Shown: in pieces, positions 36,567 through 57,700 of the stretch
Layout of the letters: each line of letters opens with the position of its first letter
How positions within the stretch are numbered: the stretch's first letter is position 1
DNA from: Catajapyx aquilonaris
Lineage: Eukaryota
Length of the DNA stretch: 64,000 nucleotides
Reading direction: 5' to 3'
Assembly: GCA_000934665.2 (NCBI GenBank)
Contig: JYFJ02001307.1
Coordinates: 1-64,000 of the forward strand
Notes under the pieces: model-generated
What the model was told of the DNA's origin: nothing
The model's database searches: none
What the model saw: only the letters and a program-made list of their open reading frames with translations
Translations under genes and position numbers: made by a program

Positions 36567-39500
36567 TCAATGTCCCCCCTTCTTACTGGGACTTCTCTTC
36601 TTCCTACTTTTTGCCCCTCTTGTTACAACCTCCCCTGCCTCCTCTCCTTTCCGCAATGCTTCCAGGTTTTTCAACACTTGCTCCATAGTCTTCTTACCTC
36701 CCTTGGCAGTACTTCCACCTGGCTCCTGTTCTCCTTCTTGCTCAGCCCCCTGTTCCATCATTTCCTCCTTAACCACAGTCACAATAATGTCACTAGCTCT
36801 TGGATCACCTGGCGCTAAGAAATGTGCCTTCCAGATGTGTCGCCTGGCATAGCGTACTTCTGAGTAGACTTTCCCACACATGCTGCACTGTACTGGGTTG
36901 GGTGGTGTCCTCTTAGGTTTGGAGCGTGGGGCTGCCCCTGGAGCACCCTCCTCTCGTTCCCCATGGGCGACGTACATGTGCCTGCGCAGGCTCCTCTCAG
37001 TGGTGAAGGTATGCTCACACTGCGAGCATGTGGCAGTGGGCCCCTGGGTGTGAGTCTGGCGGTGCTCCTTCATGGCAAAGCTATTTGTAAATGCTTTCCC
37101 ACACAAGTCACACAGGACCAGGTCCTCTCCTGTGTGTTTTCGGATGTGGTACTTCAGTTTCTGCAAATAATTCATGGATAACATTTTGAACATTCTTTCA
37201 GAATATTTGCACATATCGTAGTACTGTATGTATCACTCCATTGAGATCCTTTTAAATGAACAAGCTAAATTTCACATTCAAGTACGGAACTTCTCAGACA
37301 TATTTTGGTTTTGGGCTTCAGTTTTATAAAACTGACGACTAACATTCAGAAAACATTTTGACCATAATTAGCTTTGAAAATCATTGAGACAATGTACCTG
37401 TTTCTTTGAAAAGGTCTGTCCACAATAAGGGCAGCTGCAGACTTCCTCCCTAGTGTGGACTCGTATATGCGAGTTGCAAGCCCCCTTGTCCGAGAATCGT
37501 TTATCGCAGTGTGTGCACTGGTAAGGCTTCTCTCCTGTATGAATGCGCACATGTCGGACCAGGTTGGACCTTTGCACAAATTCCTTAGGGCAGTGTGGGC
37601 ACTTGTGGCGTGGACCAACATGGATCAGCAGGTGCTCATTGTAGCTATCTCTCCTCTTTAAAAGAAAAAAAAACAAAAAAGCACATCAGTATTCTCCCAC
37701 AGTTAAGAAATCTACAACATAACTAACAATTACAACTTATAAATTTTCATATACAGTTAAACTTCTATAAGTCAAACTTCCCTAAGTCGAAGTTCTCTAT
37801 AAGTCGAAGAAAACTATGAGCTTGGTTGGTCACAATGTAAAATAATAGGAAATAAACTTCCCTAACTCGAATTTCTATAACTTGAAGTTCTCCATAACTC
37901 GAAGTGCAGGCAGTGCCTTACGATGGGATATTAATGTATTTTCAGTCTCCCTAAGTCGATATTCATGTTGGCGAGTATGGAAAATTATCTCATTTCCCAG
38001 CCGAAGGGTCGGGAGTAGGGCACATGTACAGAAAGGCTCAATTTCCTGATTTCCGTCTACCAGCCGTACCGAAAGTAGTGTTTGACTCGATTGTGACAAT
38101 TGAATCCTTGAATCTAAGTAGGCAAATGTCCATAACGGAGATTTTTTTTACAACAAAACAACAAGGAACATTGTAAATGTGATAGCGACAGTAATTTTTA
38201 AGTATTGAACACCTTTTGTCACTGGATATAAAGGTAGGCTTCCTTATAGAGTTCTGTGCTTAAAAAAAACCAAACTTCTCTAACTCGAATCTTCTACAAC
38301 TCGAAGTTTTTTCCCGGTCCCATGGTCATTCGACTTATAGAATTTTTACTGTATTAACAGCAGCTTTTCAGTTTTTAGCATGAATTCAAAAGTTGAAACT
38401 CGAAAATATAAATCCACCTTGTTACACCTGAAGTAGGAGTAAAACACTCACAGTGAACTCCTTCCCGCAAAACTGACAGGTGGACTTCCCAGATCCAGTG
38501 TGCAGTTGCCTGTGTCCATACATTCCCGATTTAGAAGCAAATCCTTTCCCACAATCGCTGCATCGGTAAGGGTCTTGCCCAACATGGTCAGTGGTGTAAT
38601 GGGTCTTACGTTCATTCTTGCTGGGAAATCGCATGGGGCACAGGCGACACCCAAAACCTGGGTGGTGATTTTGGGGAGAGGAAGGTGGGGATGAATCTGA
38701 ATGGGGTGAAGATGGAGGGGAGGGTGGAGAAGGTGGTGAATCTGGGGGCTGGGGTACAGAGACTGGCATCGAATCATGTTGACTATCAGTTGTGGCAGGT
38801 TGAGGTTGAGTAGTGGTAGTCAGGGTAGACGGGGGAGTTGCATGGATTGTATGGCGACGGTGACGATGGACATGGCAGGCCCTGCGGGAGGGGAAGCCCC
38901 GCCCACATATGCGGCAACGGAACGCACCACCCTGTAATTAGTAAGCATATTTTTGTAGTGCACATGTCAATAACTGTGTGATGTGTAAACTTACAAAGTG
39001 ACGGTGCACACGCCTCAAATGTCTATCCAGAAGCACCCTGGTTTTGAGTAGTAGCCCACATTCACAACATCTCCACAGGAATGAATTGGTGTGGCGTGAT
39101 GATGCATGCTGGTGCATTTCATGCAATGTTGGCAGCACCGTTAGGCAAGACTTGCACTTGAATGCAACCCCAGTCACACCTTCACTCCCATGAAGAGATG
39201 CTAGATGCAAGTCGAGGCACACTTTCGACAGAAAGAATGCTGATGGACAATGTGGGCACCTTAGAAAGTCGGACATACAGTCTTGGTGAGCAGCTAGAGC
39301 ATGTCGCTCACATTCTTCTCTCTCCCAGAACAGGTTCGGGCAAAAACGACACTTAAATCCAAGCTCCTCGCATATATGTGTCTCCTCGTGTTCAGTGACA
39401 ACATGAGATCGCATATCATTACGCCGATCCATGCGCACTAGGCAGAAAGGGCAGCTAAATCCCAGATTTTGAGAATGGATGCGAGTTAAGTGGTCCCGAA

Positions 39501-41028
39501 GTTGACCTGGATGTCCAAACTGACGTTTGCAGTGGGAACAGCTCACAGGAAGAGGTCTACGAGGAAATTCATGAGTTTCTAGGTGTGTCAAGAGCGAATG
39601 GGTGTCTGAGATGGTCTCTGCACACAGTTCGCAACAAAGTGGATCAGGCTCTACATCTGATTCAGAGGCAGCAACACACTCAATTGAGTTGGGATTAAGC
39701 TCTGGCTCAAACTCTGCCTCGCTTTGCACTCCAGGTTTATTCTCCTCATCACAAGAAGACCACTCATGAACTTCAACCTCCACTTTGACAGGCAAAGGAT
39801 CTGGTTCACTCTCAGCTGAGAATGAGGCCCACAATTGGCGGCATTGGCCTGAAGACATCCATCGAAGGGCACAGCTGACAGTCAGGTTATGTGCCTGCAC
39901 CAAATGCAAAAATGCTGCCTGTGAAACACCTGCACCTCTAAAATCATGTCCGCATAGCCCACATAACAAATGGTGCTCTTCATCAGTGGCTGCCTCAGTA
40001 AGAACTGCCACTCCAAGGTATGCTCCTGAGTCTGTCCCTTGGCCCAATTGTGAGTCCAAAGAATGAGCGTCACTAACATGAGTCTGGACCTCCTCGGCTG
40101 ATATTTGGACGCCACACCACCCACATTCTTGAGCTCCGTGACACTTCAATGAGTGGTCAGCCAATTCTTCTTCTGATGTAAAATCCATCTGGCAGCATGT
40201 GTGGAGTTCATGTTCAGAGGCATGGAAGTCCAGAGATTCTTGTGTTGGAAAAGTAACATCACACTGATGGCAGTACCAGTGTCCTTCGCACAAGACTGCA
40301 TGTGTCTTTTCAGTTGCTTCATCAGTGTATGCTTGATAACAAACATGGCAGCATTCAGCTTCATCTTTCACCCCATTCAAGGAAATCTCTCCAGCACAGA
40401 GTGCCATCAAAGGAGAGCCTTTTGGTATAAGTGTTGCCAAGTGTCCCAGTGTCACTCGGTGATGCTCTAACAAGTGCTGAAATATATTACCCGAGCTACA
40501 CACATTTTGACAGAGTCTGCACCTCAGATTCCCATTTTCTTCTGTCACTACACTACCGACACAAAATTTCATATCATTTGTCACAGAATTTGAATTTTCA
40601 TTAGTTTGTGCGACCTTTCCACCTGTCACTTCCCTTCCTGCATTCAAGTCTGCCGATAAAGTTCCTGTAAAAATTCGATGAAAGGCAGTGACATGGTCCT
40701 CTTCTAACTGGTCGACATGGCAGTATGTGCAGACACTAGTTCCATCACAGCCATCCGCATGGGACTGGTAGTCTGACACGCTGTGGAAGGCAACGGCACA
40801 TTTGGCACAGTGGGGCAAGGAGTGTGACAGGACGGCGTGCAGGAAGGCCATGTCCCTGCTGGGCAGGACTCGCGTGCAGGCAGTGCAGACCAAGGGCAGC
40901 TCTGCCCCTTGCTCCTCCTCCGTCCCTCCCTGCTCCACACCCAAGTAGGCAGACAGGGCTGCAGTGTACGGGATGCCATTCTCAGGTGGGGCCCGCCCGT
41001 TGTCGCTGGGACCCGGGGGCTCCTCCAT
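36567..41028 (-). CDS. Multi-C2H2 zinc-finger protein, ~1121 aa
   Basis: Exons 41028-38995, 38931-38452, 37655-37398, 37160-36567, all phase-0 GT-AG. Many dispersed CxxC...HxxxH(xH) fingers N-terminally, a Pro/Ser-rich linker, and a C-terminal tandem array with an HTGEKPY linker. Start at MEEPPG is inferred. Confidence 0.9.
37754..38351. mobile_element. Tc1/mariner-pogo (Tigger-like) MITE in zinc-finger intron 2
   Basis: TA|CAGTTAAACTTCTATAAGTC...TTCGACTTATAGAATTTTTACTG|TA, with repeated internal (C)TA(T)AA(G/C)TCGAA submotifs near both ends. Confidence 0.85.
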
Positions 41029-41346
41029 CCTCCAACCCGCAAAGGACCCACAGCCTGTTCGGCACTCCAATGAACACAAATTAGGGAAAGGAAAATCCCT
41101 GCCCCGAAAAAAGATAAAAAAAATGGCGGACAGGTACCGTTCGGTTGGCCGTCTTGTCAATAGAAAGAAAAAAAATAACGGAACGAATTCTAATTTCATG
41201 AAAAATGTAAACACTAGCCAAAAACCGCTTCAAATTCTCAGTCGTGTCCTACAGAGGGGATTAATTCATAATTTGTGACTTGTCAGTTCCCGGCCAAAGT
41301 GGAACATCAATCCGCCAGCGTCACGAGTTGGCATCAGCTGCGATCA
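41029..41346. promoter_or_regulatory. Putative bidirectional promoter and 5' UTRs of the zinc-finger gene and NDUFS8
   Basis: Divergent ATGs ~320 bp apart; YY1/Pho-like AAAATGGCGG at ~41120-41129. Confidence 0.65.
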
Positions 41347-41349
41347 ATG

Positions 41350-43838
<2,489 letters not shown>

Positions 43839-44721: not shown

Positions 44722-47700
44722 TCAGTCACTGCTCAATTTGACCTTTGCTCTCTTCCTCCTGCGCTCTTCCCTGGAGAGACGTTTGTGGTAGCTCTGGGCC
44801 AATGAGTTGACAATTGAGACCACAAAGTACGCTATCATTAGGACCACCACCTTTTCAAAAATGGCAGCCAGTAAGCTTCCCTCCTGTAAAGAAGAACAAT
44901 TGAACACATTACAAATCAGCCTGAAGGAACTAGGGGCAAATGAAACCATCATTTATACCACGCGCTTCAAAATTGAGCTTTCATTAATTTTGGTGCAAAT
45001 ATTGCATGTACTCACCTCCATGCATTCATCTTCAATTTTAGCAAGGAATTACATGCATGTAACAGTCGGTTATATACTAGATATGCCAATTACCTTATCA
45101 ATTGTTTTGCATCATGTGCGTAACTATCTAGTGCCATGCCCAGATGCCAGTTATGGTCAAGACAAAATTGTAAGGCAATGCAGAGCCTTCATCCTATCAA
45201 CATCCCACTACCCATCCCAAACACCTTTGCGGGAGAAATCTAATCAGCCAGGAGACTTTCCTGTGTGATGCGCAAATTTATAGGCACATGCACCTTGCAT
45301 TTATGGCTCACCAACTATGCCTGAAACACTGTTATTGCCCTAATAAATCTCATTTGGGCTTTTGTATGGGTGAGATTGACTATGGGTTTCATGTGCTTCT
45401 AATTTTGGCTTGGCTATGCAATAGTATCCTTTAAGAGGGCCGGGTACCTGGCGACCGCGCCACTTTTCAGGCAAAGCGATGAGAAAAACGGGTGCGGATT
45501 CATTGTCTTCGTTCGACATATCCTCGCTCCTATGGGAGGTACGGACATGCGGTTTTTTGCGTTGCACGGAGGGATGACCGGCGCTGCCTCCGGTCTTGGT
45601 CCGGTCCGGATCGGCCCACAAACACCGCATCTGGGATGGGAAACGCATTTGCCACAGGGGCGTCGAGCCGGAGGACGAAATTCAAAAAAGGAGCTTGTAG
45701 GTCCACAGGCCCACTGTCTATGTTTCTGCTGACGATTTTTGGGTGCGCCGGGATTGTTTTTGTGGACGTGAGGCTGCACGAAACGAGACCCTAAGGACAC
45801 AGACACAGCGAACAGAACGAGAGAAGAACAGAGCGGCAACACGGCGCCCGTTGCCCCCCAACTCCCACCCTCAGAGTAGGGAATACAGGCTGGTTGCCAA
45901 GGACGGGGGTGTGGGTGGGACGGGGTGTGGGTGGGACGGGGTGGGAGTGGGGGGGCAACGGGCGCCGTGTTGCCGCTCTATTCTTCCCTCGTTCTGTCCG
46001 CATGTGTCTGTGTCCTTAGGGTCTCGTTTCGTGCAGCCTCACGTCCACAAAAACAGTCCCGGCGCACCCAAAAATCGTCAGCAGAGACACAGACAGTGGG
46101 CCTGTGGACCTACAAGCTCCTTTTTTGAATTTCGTCCTCCGGCTCGACGCCCCTGTGGCAAATGCGTTTCCCATCCCAGATGCGGTGTTTGTGGGCCGAT
46201 CCGGACCGGACCAAGACCGGAGGCAGCGCCGGTCATCCCTCCGTGCAACGCAAAAAACCGCATGTCCGTACCTCCCATAGGAGCGAGGATATGTCGAACG
46301 AAGACGATGAATCCGCACCCGTTTTTCTCCTCGCTTTGCCTGAAAAGTGGCGCGGTCGCCAGGTACCCGGCCCTCTTAATAAGAATATTTCCAAGTGGTC
46401 TTACAGAAGGAATGGGTGCTCCAGACTTCCGATGAAGTTTGGCCTTCTGCTCCTGCAGGAACTGCCTGAATGGGGCCTGCAATCGATGGCCCACAAGAGG
46501 CAGCCGCGCCAGGGCAGCCAAGAGCTTTTCCAACAATGTCTCACTGAAGGCAATGATGACACACAGCTTCTGTAGGTGCATCTTGACCACTGCTTTCCCA
46601 ACCAATGTTGCCCCAAAGAAGGTCCAAAATGGAATCAGGAAATGACCACATGTTATTCCAGCCAAGTCAAACAGTGGATTTGGGATCTGGAAAAGAAAAT
46701 AACAATTTATACCTTATTCCGTACTCCTCAAGTTAATTCTCTTAAAAGTCAGGTGTATATCCTTACCGATGCACAAAGCATAATTCCCATGAACCCAACT
46801 CGCTCCACCAGGCGCTCTATGCTCAGTTTGGCCTGGTCAAGCCAAGTCTGGAAAATATTCAATGCTACCATGAAGTTTCACAAGTGACTGTACACACACC
46901 TCCTGCCTGACCTCAAAATGTGCCCTCTTCAATACTTTTCAGGGTTTGACAGTAGACAACCAACCAACCAAGAGCAGAAAAATAATTATCTAAAACTACT
47001 TTATTGGCATCAGAAGTGTACCAGGTAGAAACCTGGATTGTTTTGAGATTTTCATGCATTTAACATTAAATTAGACAATTGTCATTAAAATATAACCTGA
47101 TTTTTGATTCTTGGCTTGCTCAACATTTCAAAGAACTTCTTTGAAATTTACTAGCCTTCATCTAACATGTGGCAGCTCATTACAACCCTGAAATTACTTC
47201 AAAGTTACTCTGCATTTCACATGGTTCAATAATCCTGGCAACCTCAGCTAAAACATGAGCACAAGCAGACACACACCATGTCCTCTGGCTTCTCCTTTTT
47301 CCGCTGAAGCTCCTCAAACTCCCTGAGCTCCTCATCCTCTGATTCTTCATCTTCTGGTGCTTCCTCATAATCACCCCCACCTTCTGCTGCTCTGGTCTTT
47401 TTTACAACAGCTCCACCACCAGCACCTGACAGTCTGGCTGCCCTGGCCATAAAATAGGGTGGAAGTTCTCCAAGGGCAGTTCCTGCACCCCACATGAAGG
47501 CCTCCACCCTCACCTTAGCCATTATCGTCCAAAGTGACACTAATGCTGGATTTGCTGCCGTCTCTGGACACAATATCTCATTTGGATATGGTGGCTCAGG
47601 GAAATCAAGAGACCCACATTCATAAGCAGCCATGGTCACAGAGGCAATATGTGGGCCTAGGTACAGCAGGAAGGTATGTAATCCTGTGCCCAACCCAACT

Positions 47701-50700
47701 GAAGATAGGATCCCAAGGCCAACCCAGTAAGCCCACCACATCACACGCTCCTGTGCTGTTGCGATCAGCTTCTGGTGTGGGCCAGGGGTGCCATATGCTA
47801 TGGCCACTAGTGCAGCTGTCACCAGGAATGTAGCCACGGCCTTACGGTGGGTTAAGAGGCTGCGCCCATGGGAACGGAGATCAAGGACAAGTTCACGGGC
47901 AAAGTAGTGCAAAGTGGTTAGAGGCCTGCGCCAGAGGACTATAGATTCTCGGGTCTTCTGCTCCAACTGACGCTCCTGCAGGCGCTCCTGCAGGGCTGAG
48001 GAAGAACTGCCTGCACCATTGGCCTGCAGAAGGGGTGAACCGAAAGTGGAAGGCTGCTGCCTCCGCTTCACCTTGCCACTGTCACCACTACTCATCTCCA
48101 CCACTGCTGATCCACTTCGAAGGCTCTTCTCTAGTCTCTCCACCTGCAATAAGTCAAAATTTAAATACTGTCCCCATTGTACTGCATCCCACAAAGGCAA
48201 TCCATCTCAGTCTAAGAGAACATTTTTGCCAAAGTTTTGAATTGCCTTAACATGATCGTGATAGGGCTCACCCTATACGCCAGGCCACATGCAACCCTCC
48301 CCGCTACATGGGTTCCCTGGTACACAGGATGAACCCCCATCACCAGCACATTAATGCATTTTAATCAAAACTTAATGAACGACTATTTCCACAATGAAGT
48401 TAATATTACCACTGCAGTGATTTTGTCTGAGGAAATTACTAGAAGCCTTAACCTGAAAGAAGTGTGCCTTTGGCATCATCCTGTATATTCTACCAGAAGA
48501 ATATGAAGCACCTGAGGTTCAGCAATCTGTGACATTATCATGACATTTCCAAAGGGGAGGATGGAACTACAGTATATTAGTTCTCAAAGGTCTCCCAACA
48601 CTCCCACGTGCAAGTTGCAAAAGAGCTATGAATTTCCCAACTCACTCTGAGTGCCAGCATTTAATAGTCTGATGACAAATTGAATTCAGATGTCACACTG
48701 AAGCAATCCTCCTAAATGAAGGAATGTCTTACAAATTTAATTCTCAAATAAATTATTAATGTAATGACATATTGGGAGAATTATCACATGACCCAAAAAT
48801 TAAACCAGTTACAGGCATTGGCTTTACCAAGAGAATTCACTTTAGGCTGCCGTTCTCTTCTGCTATGACTTCCAGGAAAAAGGAAATGCATTCTGATGAC
48901 CAGGGCGACAATCAATAAACTCATCAATATGCCCTGACATGAACAAGTTCATCACAATATCAAAGCAAAATAAAAAAATTCTACATGCAACTTATCATGG
49001 TACAGTACAGGCAAAATGATACTTCCAGCACAGAACAATACATCAACAGCACAAAATAAAATAATGTAAACCAGAAAAACGAAACAAAATTGCAGAAAAA
49101 TTGCAAATAGAACTGCATCCCAAGTGTCTTAAAATCCAGCATACAAGATATTTACGCAATAAAAAGGTGTCTTGAATTGAGGCACTCGGAGGAAAAACGG
49201 CACATCCCAACCAACCTCCGATTTTGAGATTGTAGTGCTTTTGTACTCTCCTGCCATCTACCTTTCATGTTTGAAGTCCCAAATGAATTGGGATATGCCA
49301 AAGCTCACACATTCCACTTGTAAAATTGGTCCGCAATGGAAAATCCTATTCTCTTGCAACACAAAAGCTGTTTATCTCAAAATGAACTCCAGTTGGGATA
49401 TGCCGTTTTTCCTCTGAGCACCTCAATTATGCCCTACGTCCTGTTAAAGACAGATAATTTGTTTCCTGAAGTAAAACAGAGTTCTCACTTGGTTACTTGG
49501 TTGCATTCTACAATCGAAATAACCCTTTATAGGTTTGCCTCAGAAAGGACTTTTGTCTTAGCAAACATGGACTAAAAGTCTAACATCTGACCTGGTAATA
49601 TTCACGATGAGTCTACTTATTCTATCATGTACCAATCAATATATGACCTGCAAATTGTTCCAGTACACGTGTCTGTACCTGAAATCAAGATCTACTGATT
49701 AGCTCAAACTCCAGGTTCAAACACTTTTGTTATCAAAAATTCCATATTTCTTTATTAATCCCAGATAACTATAATTGCCAGTCCCATGTCTTCAAGACTA
49801 CCCTTGTACTCACACTCCTATGAAATCATATAAACTGATTACTCATGCTACATGCACACAAAAAGTGCTTAATCCTAGAAGATAATGCACGCTCCCTGCA
49901 CCAGGTTCAAAGCAATGCATCACCCCCAGCAAGCCAGGTGAGTAGTTTACAACACAAGCATCCTTAGTAAACAGAGCGCAGTCTAAAGTCCATGCCGGGA
50001 CCTGAACAGTACAAGTTCCGCTTATCATCCTTGAGTCCTATCTTGGAGATGGCAAAACAAGAGTTGCATAATGTGGCTGCTTTCATCATGTTCCTTTGCC
50101 CTACAGGCCAAAGGGAGCAACTAATTACCCTTAGGCTCTGTGAAAATAGCATTTTAAAGGTGCCTTTGGTTACCTGCCAAACATGTATACAATGTTGGCC
50201 AACTCAAATAATTCCCACCCACACAAAAATGTCTGGACTTTGTCACTTGCTTACCAGCTCAAAGAACAAAGGCACGTGGCTCAACCATGTACAGTTAAAT
50301 GCTCATAGAAAGACCCTCCTACACATTACTCCATGAATTTTGCCATATATATTACAAGAACAATAAATATGAGGCAATAAAAAAGGCACTACAGCCTTGA
50401 AATGGCCCTTCCAGCTGCCAACTACATACTCTAATCCTGCATAACTAAACCTAACAAAAATAAACTTGTTGCCTGGGCATACATCTATGCAGGAAATGTT
50501 CCTGATGATTATTATTCCCTGTGTATGTGGCCTTGGTCTCAATCACCTTAAACTTGCCAATCTTGTTGACTGCCATTTTTCCAACTCACATTAGTCTCAG
50601 GAAGCCAGTCCACCTCAACCACAGCTGACAAACCACTTGTGCTTGTCACTGCCATCCCCAACCTCAATATGATTCTGACACGCTTTCTTGACTTTCACTT

Positions 50701-51186
50701 TTGCTTCCCAGCAAGAATGTGCTGCTCTTCCTCTGCTTATAAACACTCTGCTTCCCAGATAAGCACAAAAAGGTAAAAAATGTTGCTGCAGCGCATGTGT
50801 GTCATCTAGGAACTATGACCGGACTTTGATGCTTTCAATCATCTACGAATTAGCTCTTTGGAACACGGCCATCATTCGCAATCAACCAATGACCTCAATT
50901 TTTCCCCCTTTCCTCAGGTCAATATGTGAGGAAGCAGCTGACTGACTACTGCAGCACAAAAAATGATAAAATTTCAACAATCATGCAACAGTGGAAATAA
51001 GCCAGAAAGCAGTGCAAAGGCAACGAATTTGGATACCAAGGCAGCCTTTTTGCCCTTGACTGGAAGTTGCCGCCGCCGCAGTTCTTCCCTCAGGCGATCA
51101 CATGTCAGGAGGGCTAGTGCCTTCAGGTCCAGCTCCTCTTCTGCCCCTTGCTTTGCAGCTGCTCCGCTACTTCCTTTTCTACGCAT
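44722..51186 (-). CDS. VMP1: Vacuole membrane protein 1 (VTT/DedA-domain ER scramblase), with a candidate N-terminal SAP-domain exon (~513 aa; ~447 aa from ATG 48095)
   Basis: Exons 51186-51037 (SAP, inferred), 48143-47277, 46847-46767, 46686-46405, 44883-44722, all phase 0. Hallmarks [82 protein letters not shown]. The VMP1 identity is firm; inclusion of the SAP exon is less certain. Confidence 0.93.
45435..46375. mobile_element. Young foldback transposon with ~435-bp TIRs, GAG...CTC termini and TTAA TSD (Sola3-like; Kolobok possible) in the last VMP1 intron
   Basis: TTAA|GAGGGCCGGGTACCTGG...CCAGGTACCCGGCCCTC|TTAA (TSDs 45431-45434 and 46376-46379). Arms are nearly identical, as shown by mirrored ORFs on both strands. 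Short G-rich centre. Confidence 0.92.
49179..49424. mobile_element. Small MITE with GAG...CTC termini and 4-bp AATT TSD (Sola-like) in a VMP1 intron
   Basis: AATT|GAGGCACTCGGAGGAAAAACGGCACATCCCAAC...GTTGGGATATGCCGTTTTTCCTCTGAGCACCTC|AATT; ~33-bp imperfect TIRs. Confidence 0.8.
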
Positions 51187-53104
51187 CTTGATGCTTTCTA
51201 TTCCATCTCTGCTTCACTACCCTCTAATTTTAGTAAGCTGGGAGGAAAACCACAATGGACATTTTAACAATGGTTCCACTTTCTCCACTTCCAACATCTG
51301 CTGCAGCAAATGATATTATGTGCTGATCAATACACAGTACCACAAACTACACTACCACATATATGCAATCAAAAGGAATTATGTAAATATTATGCTTAAC
51401 ATATGATACAACTATACAACAAAAGAAAACCATGTCATCAACATTATTCATCCCGATGTTTTCGCTCTGTGGGGTAGTCAGCGATGAAGAATGAGATGAG
51501 ATTTAACCCCAATTATTATCTAAAAATGACAGGCATTCATTGAATACAAATAAAGGTTTAAACAGTCTGAATACTCCAAAATAATACTCCAAAATAACAT
51601 AACCTACCGCCAAATATGCTCATGTAATATGGCTCACAACCCTACTAGGTCAGTACCCTGCATGACACTATTGACACATAGCTTGAATTTTCTTATTTTT
51701 AAATGAAAGCATGTGTTCATCTCTCATCCAAATCTCTCAAACTGACAAAGCGTGTCACATAAATAAATACCTAATCAGCCATATATGGACAACCTTCAGC
51801 TCTTGGCAACTGCTTGTCCCTAAACACCATGCACATGCACATTATTTATGGTTAGTTTTAGACTATATCTTACCATGCAATTTGAGTGGGCCTGTGGACA
51901 AAAAAAAATATACCACAACAATTTCAAGCTCTATAATTATATTCCACTCCTGCAATTTCTGACCGATGCAGTTCCCGACTCTTACGTTACGGTCGCGTCA
52001 CATGACTGATGTGTTAGAAATGACACTCCACTAATTACAGCTAATACGACTCCTTTGTGAGAAATGTTACAGGAAATAATACTGTCAACTGCCACTATGC
52101 TTATAAAAAGAAAGGAAGCATAGGCCTATAAATGCAAGCCAACCTTTAAAAAGCTCGTTACTCTGAAATGCTCTGGCATTTTCGACCATTAGAGAGAGGA
52201 TTTGGATTAGTGTTCAGCCTGCTTTGTTCTTCCTATATTATCTCCAGGAAATGAAGACAAAAAAAATGCAACATTGTCTGTAATGAGAGAAACTGACAAA
52301 TGTAGTTTATACACTACTAGAAATATACAGCCCATCCTGCACATATCTGTGAATTTGTATTAGGTTTCCAGTGAAAGCACTGGTTGGTAAAAATAATAGT
52401 GGATCAATACTGTCATTCAAACCTGGGGTGCCAGGTTAGAATGTGTTGATCCGTGCATAAGATCTATCGTAAACGAATATAATTAGGTCAGGTAGTAGGA
52501 TAGTGAAAGTTGGGTTAGGGTAGGTTATGAACCAGACAGGTTTGATTAGTTTTACAGGTTCACCCGGTACCACCAGCACACTAACAGTAAGTAGGTAAGA
52601 ATATAATGGAGTATCATATGCCAGGACTGTAGCATCAATGGATAATGTTTCATTCATCACACATTTCATCATGCCCAAGATCCATTGCTATTGATCAGCA
52701 CTCCACAAAACTGCTACACCCAAAACAACATTCACTACACCATCTTCAATTATTATTTCAATTTGTTTTTACTCCCTGATTATGATCCTGCTTTACTCTC
52801 GAGAGTCAGAAACAGATATTGAACATACATACATACTTGAACTTACATTATCACATATAGGAATAAGATCCTACCTAGAAGTTCAGTAAATGCAAGTGAA
52901 TTCCTGTAACATAACTATGCACCAGGACTATTATTTACTGACAAAAAAAGGTTTACCTCTATTTCCCCTATGGCTTATGCAATATGAGATGTACATTGCA
53001 AAAAATGAGTCTTGTAACCTACATTCTTAATACCAGGAAATTCTACGTACCACTTATAATGCAACATACATACACCCAATATCAACTGGTCATCAGCGAT
53101 TCTA

Positions 53105-53362
53105 CAGTAGAACCCCGTTTACCCAACCTCGGATTGTCCGACTCCTCGGTATATCCAACCATACAGCACCAGCAATAAATATGTTTTCTCATTAAATATG
53201 GTAATGTTCTATGCATGTTTTGTGTTGCCTTAGTTAAATTGCAAATAGAGCACAATAGTGTATGTAAAAGATAATAAATACTTCCTTATTTCTTACAAAA
53301 CCATAATATTGTACCGTAATATTTCATTATTATACGGGTGACGGATAATCGGGGTTCCACTG
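53105..53362. mobile_element. Tigger/pogo-like MITE
   Basis: TA|CAGTAGAACCCCGTTTACCC...GGATAATCGGGGTTCCACTG|TA. Confidence 0.82.
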
Positions 53363-53922
53363 TACCGGTACCTAAATATTCTCAACAAACCTTGCGTAAC
53401 ATTAGAAAATGTAACCACACTGAAATCACATTTTTCATTAAATGAAAACCTGCCACATATGAACCCCGATACTACACTCCAGTCGTGCTCCAGTATCAGA
53501 AATGGACTTTGAGTCATTTACCTGAAGAATAAATATCCCTCCAATCTACACCCATGCGAATCACCTGTTCTTCCCGGACTAGTCCCCCAGCAAAGCAGGC
53601 GGCTGGAAACCCAAAGGCCCGGTTTCCTAGAAATCGAGGGGCCGGATCTGTGCCAAATACACGTGTGTGCTTTCCTCCTCCTCTAATCACACCGCATCGT
53701 TCTCTTTTTTTTTCCACCCCCGACCTCCCTCTCCCACACCTCCCGTTCCCCTTTCTCCTTGTTGATGGGACTCCGCCTCCGTGAGCAGCCGTGACTGGAC
53801 GAAACATAGTTGCACAATCGAGAGACACGCGACCGAAACAATACAAATATCAGTCCACCTCCTCCCGCCAATCCCTCCGGATTTGACTCCCTCCCGGATG
53901 ATCTGCAGGTCGGGTTTCTTAC

Positions 53923-54358
53923 CGGCCAAGCGGCGTCCTTCCCGGCAGTAAGACACGAACAGAACGAGCACAGAAGCCGGACGACGAATCCGAATAATCA
54001 CCTCCACGCCGCCATCTTTAATTAGCCTTCCGCCCGCCCTCCCCCCTCCTCCTCTCCTCCTTGCCCACTGCTTCAAAGGAGGCCGCCAGAAGGCACCACC
54101 GTCGCCTCGTAATAGCTACTAACACTCGCGGCGATTGGATGACGTAACGGCTACTTCATAATCTCACAAATGGGCGGGAATGGAAATATCTAGTTCAGCC
54201 GCGATGCTACATTCTGGTCGTCCGAATTCCAAGATGGCAGCTTCCACGACGGATGTTTTCTTCCGTAATTTTAAGGCAGCAGACGACAGTTTTAGTTTTA
54301 GGGACTGGAGCATACGGGCTTGATTTGGAAAAGGCAGAGATTGTGTCGCCAGGGACGT
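53923..54358. promoter_or_regulatory. Putative VMP1 non-coding first exon and bidirectional promoter shared with the VPS9-domain gene
   Basis: GC-rich island. Minus-strand donor CCG|gtaaga (exon ends 53923). YY1-like AAGATGGCGGCG on the minus strand (~54007-54018) and CAAGATGGCAGC on the plus strand (~54230-54241). Confidence 0.55.
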
Positions 54359-57300
54359 ATGGACCGTTTGCATCCTGGATTCATTACCTCCAGATACAAT
54401 ATCATACGAGGAGTTTGTGGGTAGGTCGCCTAAGAGGACGTTCATGGCCTTAGAATAGTGGTACGTTCCTTACATTGACACGAACTTGCTGAACTCTTAA
54501 GAGTTGCAAGGTTTAAATGAGATGGGTACTTATTTCCAACTGTTCCAAAGTTTGAGAGGCATGTTGAGAGGTGACACGTGGATGTTAAATCTGGAAAATA
54601 CCTACTAGCTACTACACACCTGAATATCTGGAAACAGGAGCTAATAAATTGGGCTCCTGCTCGAAATTACTTCCATTCAACGTAGGATGAATAGGAACTC
54701 CTGATTTTTTGTTAGAGAAACTTTGACATACACAGAATGAAATATTGTCATGACAGACTGACAGTAACAGGTGTAGCCAGGGATAAGGTATTATGCTAGG
54801 GAGGGATTTTAATCTTTCAAATCAAGCAACTTTCAGAGTCTAAAGCCCGCTCCACACTGGCTGAATTTCTCCGATGGGGATATTTCTGGACGAGAAATTC
54901 AGCCAGTGTGGAGCGCGTCTCCGATCCAGTTTGTGACGTCATCATGCGAATTTTAAATTTCAGTCGATTTTCCATTTTCTCCAACGGAGTCGGGCAGGAT
55001 TTTTCCATATGAGAAACTCAGCCAATGTAGAGCGGGCTTAATAGCTCATGAACTATGCATCTTTCCATTTAACATTAAAATTGGATTATTTCTAATTTTT
55101 TGCCATAATATTACATTAATCTGCAACATTCAAACCTTGTTGATGTACTGTAGTTAATATCTCGTAATTTATTTAACATTGTACAACTAATAAACTGATT
55201 AATTATTAACAGTCAGAATTTGAATAAACCTCATTTTGACCATTGTTGAGGCTTAAAAAACAGTTTTTGGGACAGATACAAATATGGATGGGTTATTTTG
55301 AAAGCACATAACACTAGCTTTCAGAATATGTCATAATTATTGGCTTGTGTATCAACTTGGGGGGAAGGGAGGGCCTTTTACTGGAAGGCATGTTTCCACA
55401 TGGCTAGGGCCTGCAGAGGTGGTGTCGTTCTACCACCCCATTGGCACCTTTGGGACGGCACTGAGGGTGTTTAAGCCATCTTTCGCTGATACTGTTTGCA
55501 GTGATCGTCACATGTATTTGAGAGTTTGTCTAATTGAACTCTCTTCATTCACCCTCTCCAAAACAATTGCATTTTTGAGTAAAGCTTCATGCTTCTACCC
55601 AGTAACATATATCTGCCAAAATGATTCCTTAAACACTCATTGTTAGATTTCAGTATCATGCCTCATAATCTTTTGTTGCAATGTTATTAGATGTCAAGTA
55701 CCTGATTACAGAAGAGCAGCACAGAGAAGGCAGCCTGCACATCAACAGAGCCAGCAATACCCATTATTGTAGTTTAAAAGCTCCCTCACCAGGTAACACC
55801 ACAAATACAATTTAATGGCATTCAACATCATCCGAAATTACCACCATTTTCTCTTCTGATGCTTAAGCAATCTGTAACTATGCAAAAATCTGATGAATTA
55901 GAAGAGGAGGAATTTGAGAAAAGGTGGCACCCACATCGCAACATAACTTCTAGACAAGAGTAAGTCACAAAAAAATTGCCAAATCTGCTGTCACAATTTG
56001 TCCTTTTAGGAATGTGCCCTATAAACATGTATAATAACACCTGTGGTGTGCCTTGCAGTGCAGCAGAATTCCTCAACATGTTCCCAGTGCACATCAACTT
56101 GTTGGTAGATTTAGAAGCAGATATATGTAGTGCCCGTACAGAACATCCACTTGAATCCGACTGCCTGGAAAAATCACGAAGCTACATCCGCAGACTGATA
56201 CGTGATCACTGGTCACGATTTTTGTTGGCTCACCCTGAAAGCTACCGTCAAGATAGCAATTTCCAGACCCTCCTTGCAGCTGCAATAGAAACGTAAGTCC
56301 ACAGAGATTCTCTATGCTGCCTGTCCCAAGGTTGTATTACAGTCCGGAAAAAGATCCAGGAGACAATTACAAAGGGCATAACTTGATACTATGCAGTTGG
56401 TTTTCACAGCACTTGCATACACACTTTGAATGAAACGTTGGTCTAGAATTCTAGATGCTCCCCAACACACCTTGCCATTATTAGAGCTGTTTGTATGAAT
56501 TGAAATTTAGGGATATTTGATGTAAACATCATCTGAAATTCTTCTTTACTAATTTGTTACATCTAGTCCATAAATAAACCACTGATAGACTTCATAATGA
56601 ATTAACAACAATGTAAATGTAATCATCTTACTTGCAGCTATGTAGTGGCATCCCTTCATGACTGCATCTTCGCTGCCATCTGCAACCACCATAAGAATAT
56701 TGACCAAGAGATCCTAGAGCGCAGCATGGATGAGTCAGCCCTGGGATGCCTGTCACTTCCTGACTGGCTACTATGGATCCCAGTCCCATCTGCTGTTGTT
56801 GAACTTGCCACCCTGGATTCTCGATGCAGCCCTGCTGACAAGGCAACATGCATGGCAGCAGCCATTGACTTAGTACAAGCGGAGGTGAAGGGAGCCATAG
56901 CCGACGCCTGGAGTCTGCAGGAAGGCAATGGGACAGCACAAGAGCTACCCCTGAGCCTGAATAGCGAGAGGTTGCGGGCCCTTCTAGTCCTCCTCCTGTG
57001 TAAGGCTCATCCACACCGACTTGCATCAAGCCTTTACTACTGCCAAATGATGCAATGGGCTGCTCCAACCAGCCACCAGGAGGCTCTGTGGCTAATGCAG
57101 CAAGCTGTTCAAGACCTGCTCACGAGATCCAGAAGAGCCCGGGAACCTCCAGCTGCAGATGAGGATGCAAACCGGCTGGGCTTAAAGCGAGAGCTCAGCC
57201 TGGAGGAGGTGATGCGAGTCACAGAGCAGGTTGAACTCAAGTTTGGGCGGCACTCATCTCAACAGCTAGATCAGAGGGAAGGAGAGCTGAGTCCACCAAC

Positions 57301-57700
57301 CCCTTCGGACTGCCGGATGCGGAGGTTGGCATCCCTGCTGGAGGCTTCATCGTCTGAAGTAGACCTACATGATCGGTCCAGGTACTGGTCGCAGCAAGCA
57401 GAGGATGCCAGGAGAGAAGCACAGCTCAAGCGGAGGTCAATGCCCAACATCAGGTAAGAATTAGGATAATTTTGACTGGCCATTTTAAACAGATGACCAT
57501 TGGCTGCCTCAGATGGCCAAAGCAGAGTAATGTGTGTGGCATGTGGTAGTTTACACTGAAATAACCACTAGCACTTTCCATCAGCCCCAAACAAAATTTT
57601 TACAAGCCACTCCCTCATTAATCTGTATACAGTAAACTTATAATAAAAGTTTTGTCTTTCCAGGGACCTGTTGGGATGCTTCAAGAATGATGCCTGCTAA
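54359..57700 (+). CDS. Divergent VPS9-domain protein (ANKRD27/Varp VPS9-like, no ankyrin repeats)
   Basis: Well-supported exons 56010-56292, 56638-57453, 57664-57700. Plausible but uncertain in-phase upstream exons 54359-54420, 55325-55578, 55691-55792. Sequence AAIETYVVASLHDCIF...AVVELATLDSRCSPADKATCM...LNSERLRALLVLLLCK...LASSLYY resembles the helical bundle plus VPS9 region of Varp. Confidence 0.65.
54844..55038. mobile_element. PIF/Harbinger-like MITE with an internal hairpin
   Basis: TAA|AGCCCGCTCCACACTGGCTGAATTTCTC...GAGAAACTCAGCCAATGTAGAGCGGGCT|TAA. An extra internal inverted copy of the TIR lies at ~54892-54915. Confidence 0.83.

Follow-up and report, generated by a model that had tools for sequence, protein, structure and literature searches.

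The VMP1 locus of Catajapyx aquilonaris

A 64,000-nucleotide stretch of the Catajapyx aquilonaris genome (contig JYFJ02001307.1, positions 1 to 64,000; hereafter the window) carries a VMP1 gene on its minus strand, together with an upstream exon that encodes most of a SAP domain. VMP1 has been studied intensively as an endoplasmic reticulum (ER) scramblase needed to form autophagosomes, lipid droplets and lipoproteins; to our knowledge, nearly all of this work has used systems in which VMP1 lacks a SAP domain. By combining tblastn searches with four relatives and a reading of the splice sites, we identified five coding exons for VMP1. All of the introns are GT-AG and phase 0 throughout, giving a single open frame of 513 amino acids (aa). 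The gene and its 5' region are made up as follows.

53300..54500, minus strand: CpG island by observed/expected ratio, likely the VMP1 promoter region
53923..54060 (5' coordinate approximate), minus strand: candidate non-coding first exon, read from the sequence, inside the CpG island
51187..51237, minus strand: putative 5' leader of the SAP exon, preceded by the acceptor ttttcctcccag (cag at 51240-51238)
51037..51186, minus strand: exon 1, the coding part of the SAP exon, 50 codons; Pfam SAP match, profile positions 2-28 on residues 24-50
48144..51036, minus strand: phase-0 intron of 2893 nt splitting the SAP domain, with donor GTATCCAA
47277..48143, minus strand: exon 2, the large VMP1 exon, 289 codons; E 2.8e-80 and below to VMP1 relatives
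48093..48095, minus strand: in-frame ATG, possible start of a SAP-less 447-aa isoform; the equivalent Met starts beetle isoforms
46767..46847, minus strand: exon 3, 27 codons, both boundaries in phase 0 (tblastn and splice sites)
46405..46686, minus strand: exon 4, 94 codons, core of the VTT domain (tblastn and splice sites)
44722..44883, minus strand: exon 5, last VMP1 coding exon including the stop codon (tblastn and splice sites)

Exon 1 opens with an ATG at 51186-51184, 30 nt downstream of an in-frame TGA (51216-51214), and encodes 50 residues ending in ...KKAAL, after which comes the gtatcc donor. The acceptor, ttattgcag, lies directly before 48143 and opens in the same phase with VERLEKSL, from which the frame runs into VMP1. 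The exon, its start codon, the upstream stop, the donor and the acceptor all lie where the original prediction had placed them, as does the donor at 53923, a strong ccg/gtaaga site that ends a possible non-coding exon. Within exon 2, the first 8 codons end helix 2 of the SAP domain and are followed by a linker with a KVKRR patch, the membrane core and an acidic insert. This insert is Gly-rich, follows the conserved ARAARLSG motif (47290-47420, minus strand) and is much longer than in the aligned relatives.

The joined five-exon model and SAP-bearing long VMP1 isoforms from arthropods could be aligned from end to end. Identity was 55% across 495 aa with Ischnura elegans isoform X1 (P0024), 53% across 496 aa with Schistocerca X1 (P0047) and 50% across 500 aa with the Pycnogonum protein (P0042), the last alignment starting at residue 2. 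The named proteins among its best matches were all arthropod, which points to a probable arthropod source with no near relative in the database, and the best matches of exon 2 had identities of only 47-66%. Pfam gave no match on exon 2 alone, and an NCBIfam scan gave none. Exon 4 alone scored 19.3 bits against Pfam VTT_dom (PF09335), for which the cut-off is 33.9 and true relatives reach just 25-35.

We put at about 0.8 the probability that this locus is an invertebrate VMP1 gene able to encode both a SAP-bearing long form of 513 aa and a short form of 447 aa. The short form would be made when the SAP exon is skipped and translation begins at ATG 48095. This had been anticipated, and the isoform is plausible; the frame is open from that codon and encodes 447 aa without SAP. 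For the locus itself, the result is a correct five-exon model, with an upstream coding exon that is easy to miss and a domain split by a conserved intron.

The SAP domain is completed across the predicted splice junction

Run on the exon-1 peptide alone, Pfam SAP (PF02037) gave 29.3 bits, above its gathering cut-off of 23.9 bits, with an E-value of 6.4e-7 and a match over positions 2-28 of the 37 in the profile. We then took the SAP region of each of 26 SAP-VMP1 relatives, built a SAP-VMP1 profile on these regions and used it to score candidate joins.

Exon 1 only: 25.9 bits
Read-through into the intron: 28.1 bits
Exon 2 only: 2.7 bits
Spliced join: 41.3 bits

Splicing exon 1 to exon 2 adds 15 bits to the profile score, in agreement with the earlier claim that a SAP motif is completed exactly at this junction. 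As a control, exon 1 was joined in phase 0 to all 674 AG dinucleotides within 10 kb downstream of the donor. The acceptor at 48143 ranked first with 41.4 bits; the runner-up reached 35.5, and the distribution had a mean of 26.1, a standard deviation of 1.4 and a 99th percentile of 31.3 bits.

The complete motif including helix 2 (...L[IV]xRL) is reached only across the splice, where the junction reads ...AAL / VERL. The conserved helix-1 Leu, loop Gly and helix-2 Arg are invariant in 27 relatives, and all are present in the joined peptide here. Because the invariant helix-2 Arg sits on the exon-2 side, the SAP domain is incomplete without the splice. The joined N terminus aligned gap-free through the SAP domain with 16 relatives; the SAP turn reads RQ here and RG in most relatives. 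That the two halves complete one SAP domain across the junction is supported by these alignments and scores, and the product would be a SAP-VMP1 protein.

A basic leader before the SAP domain and a [VL]KR[KR] patch after it are common to this protein and its arthropod relatives. The leader has the form MxxKK/RR. The patch lies 15-25 residues after SAP in arthropod VMP1s (P0025, P0046, P0047, P0054) and is KVKRR here (48050-48075, minus strand); because it is encoded in exon 2, it would be present in both isoforms. Leader and patch resemble motifs of the nuclear-localisation type.

An AlphaFold2 model of the homologue P0024, made with 27 sequences, has a helix at residues 45-54, a loop, and a second helix at 63-75. 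Its predicted local distance difference test score (pLDDT) is 81-85 for residues 41-70 and below 50 for residues 1-34 and 76-116. This model is consistent with a SAP module that is folded and sits on a flexible linker. When the N-terminal SAP-VMP1 profile was compared with solved sequences, nine matched at E <= 0.01, each over the SAP segment of the profile: three of Tho1, and one each of E1B-AP5, MKL1, Hcc-1, Ku70, a plant DNA-binding protein and SF3B2. E-values lay between 7e-9 and 3e-6 for Tho1 (1h1j, 4uzw, 2wqg), Hcc-1/SARNP (2do1), E1B-AP5 (1zrj), MKL1 (2kvu) and Ku70 (1jjr). Judged by profile match, the closest solved sequences are nucleic-acid-binding SAP domains. The motif predicted here shares with the nuclear proteins Tho1, Hcc-1/SARNP, E1B-AP5, MKL1 and Ku70 the helix-loop-helix of about 35 residues; whereas those proteins are soluble, the SAP domain here would be tethered to a multi-pass ER membrane protein.

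SAP-VMP1 proteins in other animals

The search with exon 2 returned 2597 proteins at E <= 0.001, and our counts of architecture cover the 120 of these that were listed. SAP (PF02037) and VMP1 families occurred together in 26 of the 120, and hmmscan found an N-terminal SAP domain above the cut-off in every one of the 26 (25.5-56.8 bits). Eighteen of these entries are named; the named taxa comprise 11 insects, a sea spider, four gastropods, an annelid (Owenia) and cnidarians (Xenia, Acropora). Ischnura elegans (P0024), Tribolium castaneum X1 (P0054), Pycnogonum litorale (P0042), Owenia fusiformis (P0041), Aplysia californica X2 (P0118) and Acropora cervicornis (P0034) are examples of the set. 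Looking up clusters brought in Porites, Dendronephthya, Paramuricea, the bivalve Mya arenaria and the beetle Oryctes borbonicus. Database names such as "SAP domain-containing protein" and "vacuole membrane protein 1 isoform X1" are already attached to several of the relatives.

The original prediction had suggested that the fusion was a lineage-specific form of hitherto unknown architecture. This part fails because the architecture is publicly annotated across at least four phyla, so that no new architecture is presented here. The same prediction had also foreseen that wide existing annotation would remove the novelty and leave the structure standing, and this is the actual outcome: the gene is a real, ordinary member of a database-annotated SAP-VMP1 architecture that seems to have had no dedicated study. 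We found no paper on SAP-VMP1 in the open literature, a search whose scope excluded subscription journals and bioRxiv supplements.

The Catajapyx protein shares with the annotated invertebrate SAP-VMP1 proteins a basic N-terminal leader, the SAP domain, a variable linker, the VMP1 core and the same junction inside SAP. It differs from them in being only 50-55% identical, and in its few introns (five coding exons), its long acidic insert and its RQ in place of RG. The vertebrate VMP1/TMEM49 proteins have a membrane core homologous to the one here, with 48-66% identity where the sequences align, and the mammalian protein is an ER phospholipid scramblase according to PMC8077175. Unlike the long form here, the vertebrate entries are about 400 aa long, and PF02037 was present in none of the 36 named vertebrate entries among the matches listed.

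Wider searches added little. A profile of 12 SAP-VMP1 N termini gave 13 matches among 8000 candidates when run against longer proteins, with Porites lutea and one further cluster as the only additions. Against 1.84 billion representatives, the same profile gave 8330 matches at E <= 0.001. Among the 150 of these that were listed, most were proteins with several SAP repeats, and only five were single matches reaching the end of the profile (P0041, P0173, P0124, P0209, P0210). Three of these five could be given names, and this is where Mya arenaria and Oryctes borbonicus came from. These wide searches were swamped by other SAP proteins, and the entries seen included no deuterostome invertebrate (echinoderms, hemichordates, amphioxus), with or without SAP.

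Relatives also have partner isoforms that lack SAP, in the same or a sister species. SAP-less isoforms of Thrips, Tenebrio, Coccinella, Periplaneta, Anabrus, Tachypleus and Argiope have unrelated N termini and enter the common sequence exactly at [LIV][QK]RL, which is the start of exon 2 here. Zophobas X2 and Agrilus X3 start at a Met just after [LIV][QK]RL, like ATG 48095; beetle isoform P0078 starts at the equivalent Met when compared with P0054, and P0087 likewise at an internal Met. The exon boundary in Catajapyx falls at the same position in SAP as in the relatives, before [LIV]xRL. Because the SAP-less isoforms switch at the same point, both the position of the intron within SAP and the two-isoform design are conserved and old. 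From these comparisons, the SAP-VMP1 design with an intron at this place is one that predates the cnidarian-bilaterian split, and it is not in the vertebrate entries seen.

Eight of the SAP-VMP1 proteins are encoded on contigs of 1.7-4.4 kb, and the 540-aa proteins of one SAP-VMP1 cluster come from contigs of 1.66-2.4 kb, one of which measures 1657 nt. An uninterrupted full-length open reading frame (ORF) on contigs this short implies that they probably derive from spliced transcripts in these other species.

The 5' region and the class of the SAP intron

The CpG observed/expected ratio is 0.84-1.10 at 53300-54500, compared with 0.0-0.5 in the gene body and 0.59 over the whole window. At the SAP exon it is 0.30-0.40, with no island there, and a good acceptor, ttttcctcccag, stands before the exon at 51240-51238. 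Since the SAP exon lacks a CpG island, it seems likelier to be an internal exon than one with a separate promoter. We rejected an own promoter for the SAP exon on this same, weak ground. The simplest reading is that the SAP exon (51237-51037) is a cassette exon transcribed from the CpG island near 54 kb, in which case C. aquilonaris would make both isoforms.

The leader of the SAP exon contains a minimal upstream ORF, ATG-GAA-TAG (51206-51198, minus strand), 20 nt before the main ATG, and the candidate first exon contains one of five codons (54015-53998, minus strand). CCAAT-like and TTACGTCA motifs occur at about 54130-54150. The CpG island lies between VMP1 on the minus strand and a plus-strand ORF at 56606-57457, and could be a shared divergent promoter; the ORF has a weak VPS9-domain match (25.5 bits, below the cut-off).

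The donor of the SAP intron invites comparison with introns of the minor spliceosome. The U12-type 5' splice-site consensus is (A/G)TATCCTT from +1 to +8, as given in PMC3291851. The donor GTATCCAA (51031-51036, minus strand) has a U12-like core and matches this consensus at six of the eight positions, and GTATCC is rare in the window, with 15 occurrences on both strands. For the branch site we used the U12 consensus TCCTTAACT, 12-15 nt before the 3' splice site. The best match, ATTTTGACT, is weak, agreeing at five of nine positions, with its candidate branch A at -11; a TTTTGAC motif near the 3' end of the intron (48144-48165, minus strand) sets this possible branch A 11 nt before the acceptor. 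We give the SAP-splitting intron about one chance in three of being U12-type, and such an intron may gate production of the long isoform. Our search found no literature linking VMP1 with U12-type introns, and PMC3291851 mentions neither VMP1 nor Tango5.

What the long isoform might do

In the long form, translation would start at ATG 51186. Exon 1 would contribute the first helix, the loop and the beginning of the second helix, and the phase-0 splice to 48143 would add what remains of the second helix, with its invariant Arg. Some 65 residues that are predicted to be disordered would then link SAP to the VMP1 membrane core. The N terminus of VMP1 faces the cytosol, and a SAP domain on a flexible linker could therefore let some VMP1 grip nucleic acid. 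The ligand might be DNA or chromatin if the long isoform acts at the nuclear envelope, and RNA if it acts at the ER; tethering of this kind would concentrate VMP1-dependent membrane remodelling at chromatin or RNA sites.

The original prediction had likened such a protein to the LEM and helix-extension-helix (HeH) proteins. In layout the resemblance is real: Heh1/Src1, Heh2 and MAN1 (PMC4810098, PMC4695851) have an N-terminal helix-extension-helix module that binds nucleic acid, a basic patch, a disordered linker and membrane spans. Unlike theirs, the membrane part here is not homologous and the linker is shorter (about 65 residues); residence in the inner membrane is demonstrated for Heh1/Src1, Heh2 and MAN1, whereas VMP1 is likened to them by layout only. 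A scan of the exon peptide with hmmscan (E <= 10) found no LEM or HeH family. Because it gave SAP alone, we conclude that the protein is not a HeH/LEM member.

Nucleic-acid tethering is the mechanism that we prefer for the predicted SAP domain, at clearly less than an even chance, and we think it about equally likely that the domain does not bind nucleic acid and instead acts as a protein-interaction or regulatory module, for instance by bringing a partner to the ER or by autoinhibiting VMP1. In some proteins SAP domains make contacts with other proteins as well, and at the position where most SAP domains carry the G of the R-G-L turn, the one here carries Q. For this protein, nucleic-acid binding is a prediction from sequence, and both it and the localisation of the long isoform stand as proposals. 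No nuclear-envelope role of VMP1 has been reported in the VMP1 papers examined, in which "inner nuclear membrane" appeared only in the reference lists. Against a purely protein-binding role, the nearest solved sequences are SAP domains that bind DNA or RNA, and the invariant residues of the motif are retained across four phyla. Other considerations weigh against the long-isoform reading itself. The AlphaFold2 model depicts a homologue, and its overall quality is poor (mean pLDDT 55.1, predicted template modelling score 0.33), and the use of the 51037^48143 junction, the 5' exon and the skipping of the SAP exon are all deduced for Catajapyx. The donor, TTG/GTATCC, is a poor U2-type site, and comparison of the exon peptide with longer proteins (195 candidates) gave none at E <= 10, so that no close relative of the peptide was found there.

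These last points are also what other accounts of the SAP exon draw on. Perhaps it is a constitutive first coding exon, so that only the long protein is made and ATG 48095 is merely an internal methionine. Both the 51238 acceptor and the 53923 exon are indeed predictions, and some species have only a SAP-bearing entry among the matches listed. We nevertheless think a constitutive exon unlikely, if a serious alternative: relatives have both kinds of isoform, including starts at an internal Met (P0078, P0087), and a weak or unusual donor fits regulated use. The same non-canonical donor, the want of a close relative and a junction that is itself deduced would suit a decaying relic, or an exon of some other transcript that C. 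aquilonaris never splices to VMP1. This is very improbable, given an intact frame with an ATG and an upstream stop, and a score above the Pfam cut-off. Moreover, homology to the Pycnogonum and Ischnura long isoforms begins at residue 2-17, implying that the leader before SAP is conserved too, and the sole acceptor within 10 kb that completes SAP is that of VMP1. A chance resemblance to SAP is effectively refuted, in line with what had been claimed. The peptide is short, with 27 aligned residues in exon 1, but an E-value of 6.4e-7 multiplied by an estimated 10^3 or so exon-sized frames per 64 kb is still below 1e-3, the acceptor at 48143 came first of 674 AG dinucleotides, and SAP occupies the same position in 26 orthologues.

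A VMP1 gene with a SAP-bearing long form and a SAP-less short form is thus the reading that we prefer. A fuller scenario can be built on it, in which the long isoform was kept from the cnidarian-bilaterian ancestor with the same SAP-splitting intron, was dropped in vertebrates, links the scramblase at the nuclear envelope or the ER with chromatin or RNA, perhaps for envelope reassembly, nucleophagy or the turnover of RNA granules, and has its production gated by a slow U12-type intron. Taken as a whole, we consider this scenario distinctly doubtful. Automated annotation also assigns to many invertebrate VMP1 genes a form that carries a predicted nucleic-acid-binding module. If the long isoform does join a scramblase to chromatin or RNA, this would be a new kind of contact between membrane and nucleic acid. 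Tribolium, Aplysia and corals are tractable species that have the long isoform.

Neighbouring sequence

Intron 4 of VMP1 contains a near-perfect inverted repeat (45431-46379) that begins 26 nt past the exon-4 donor. Its outer arms, 45431-45807 and 46003-46379, are 377 nt long and 99% complementary; its inner arms are 45808-45870 and 45939-46001. The repeat is CpG-rich (observed/expected about 1.1) compared with the surrounding gene body and has an ORF without a Pfam match; either a foldback element or an artefact of assembly could account for it. An NDUFS8-like gene for a 4Fe-4S subunit (41660-43838, plus strand; exons including 41660-42064 and 43463-43675) is convergent with VMP1, and a large gene with multiple C2H2 zinc fingers (36567-41229, minus strand) is a further neighbour.

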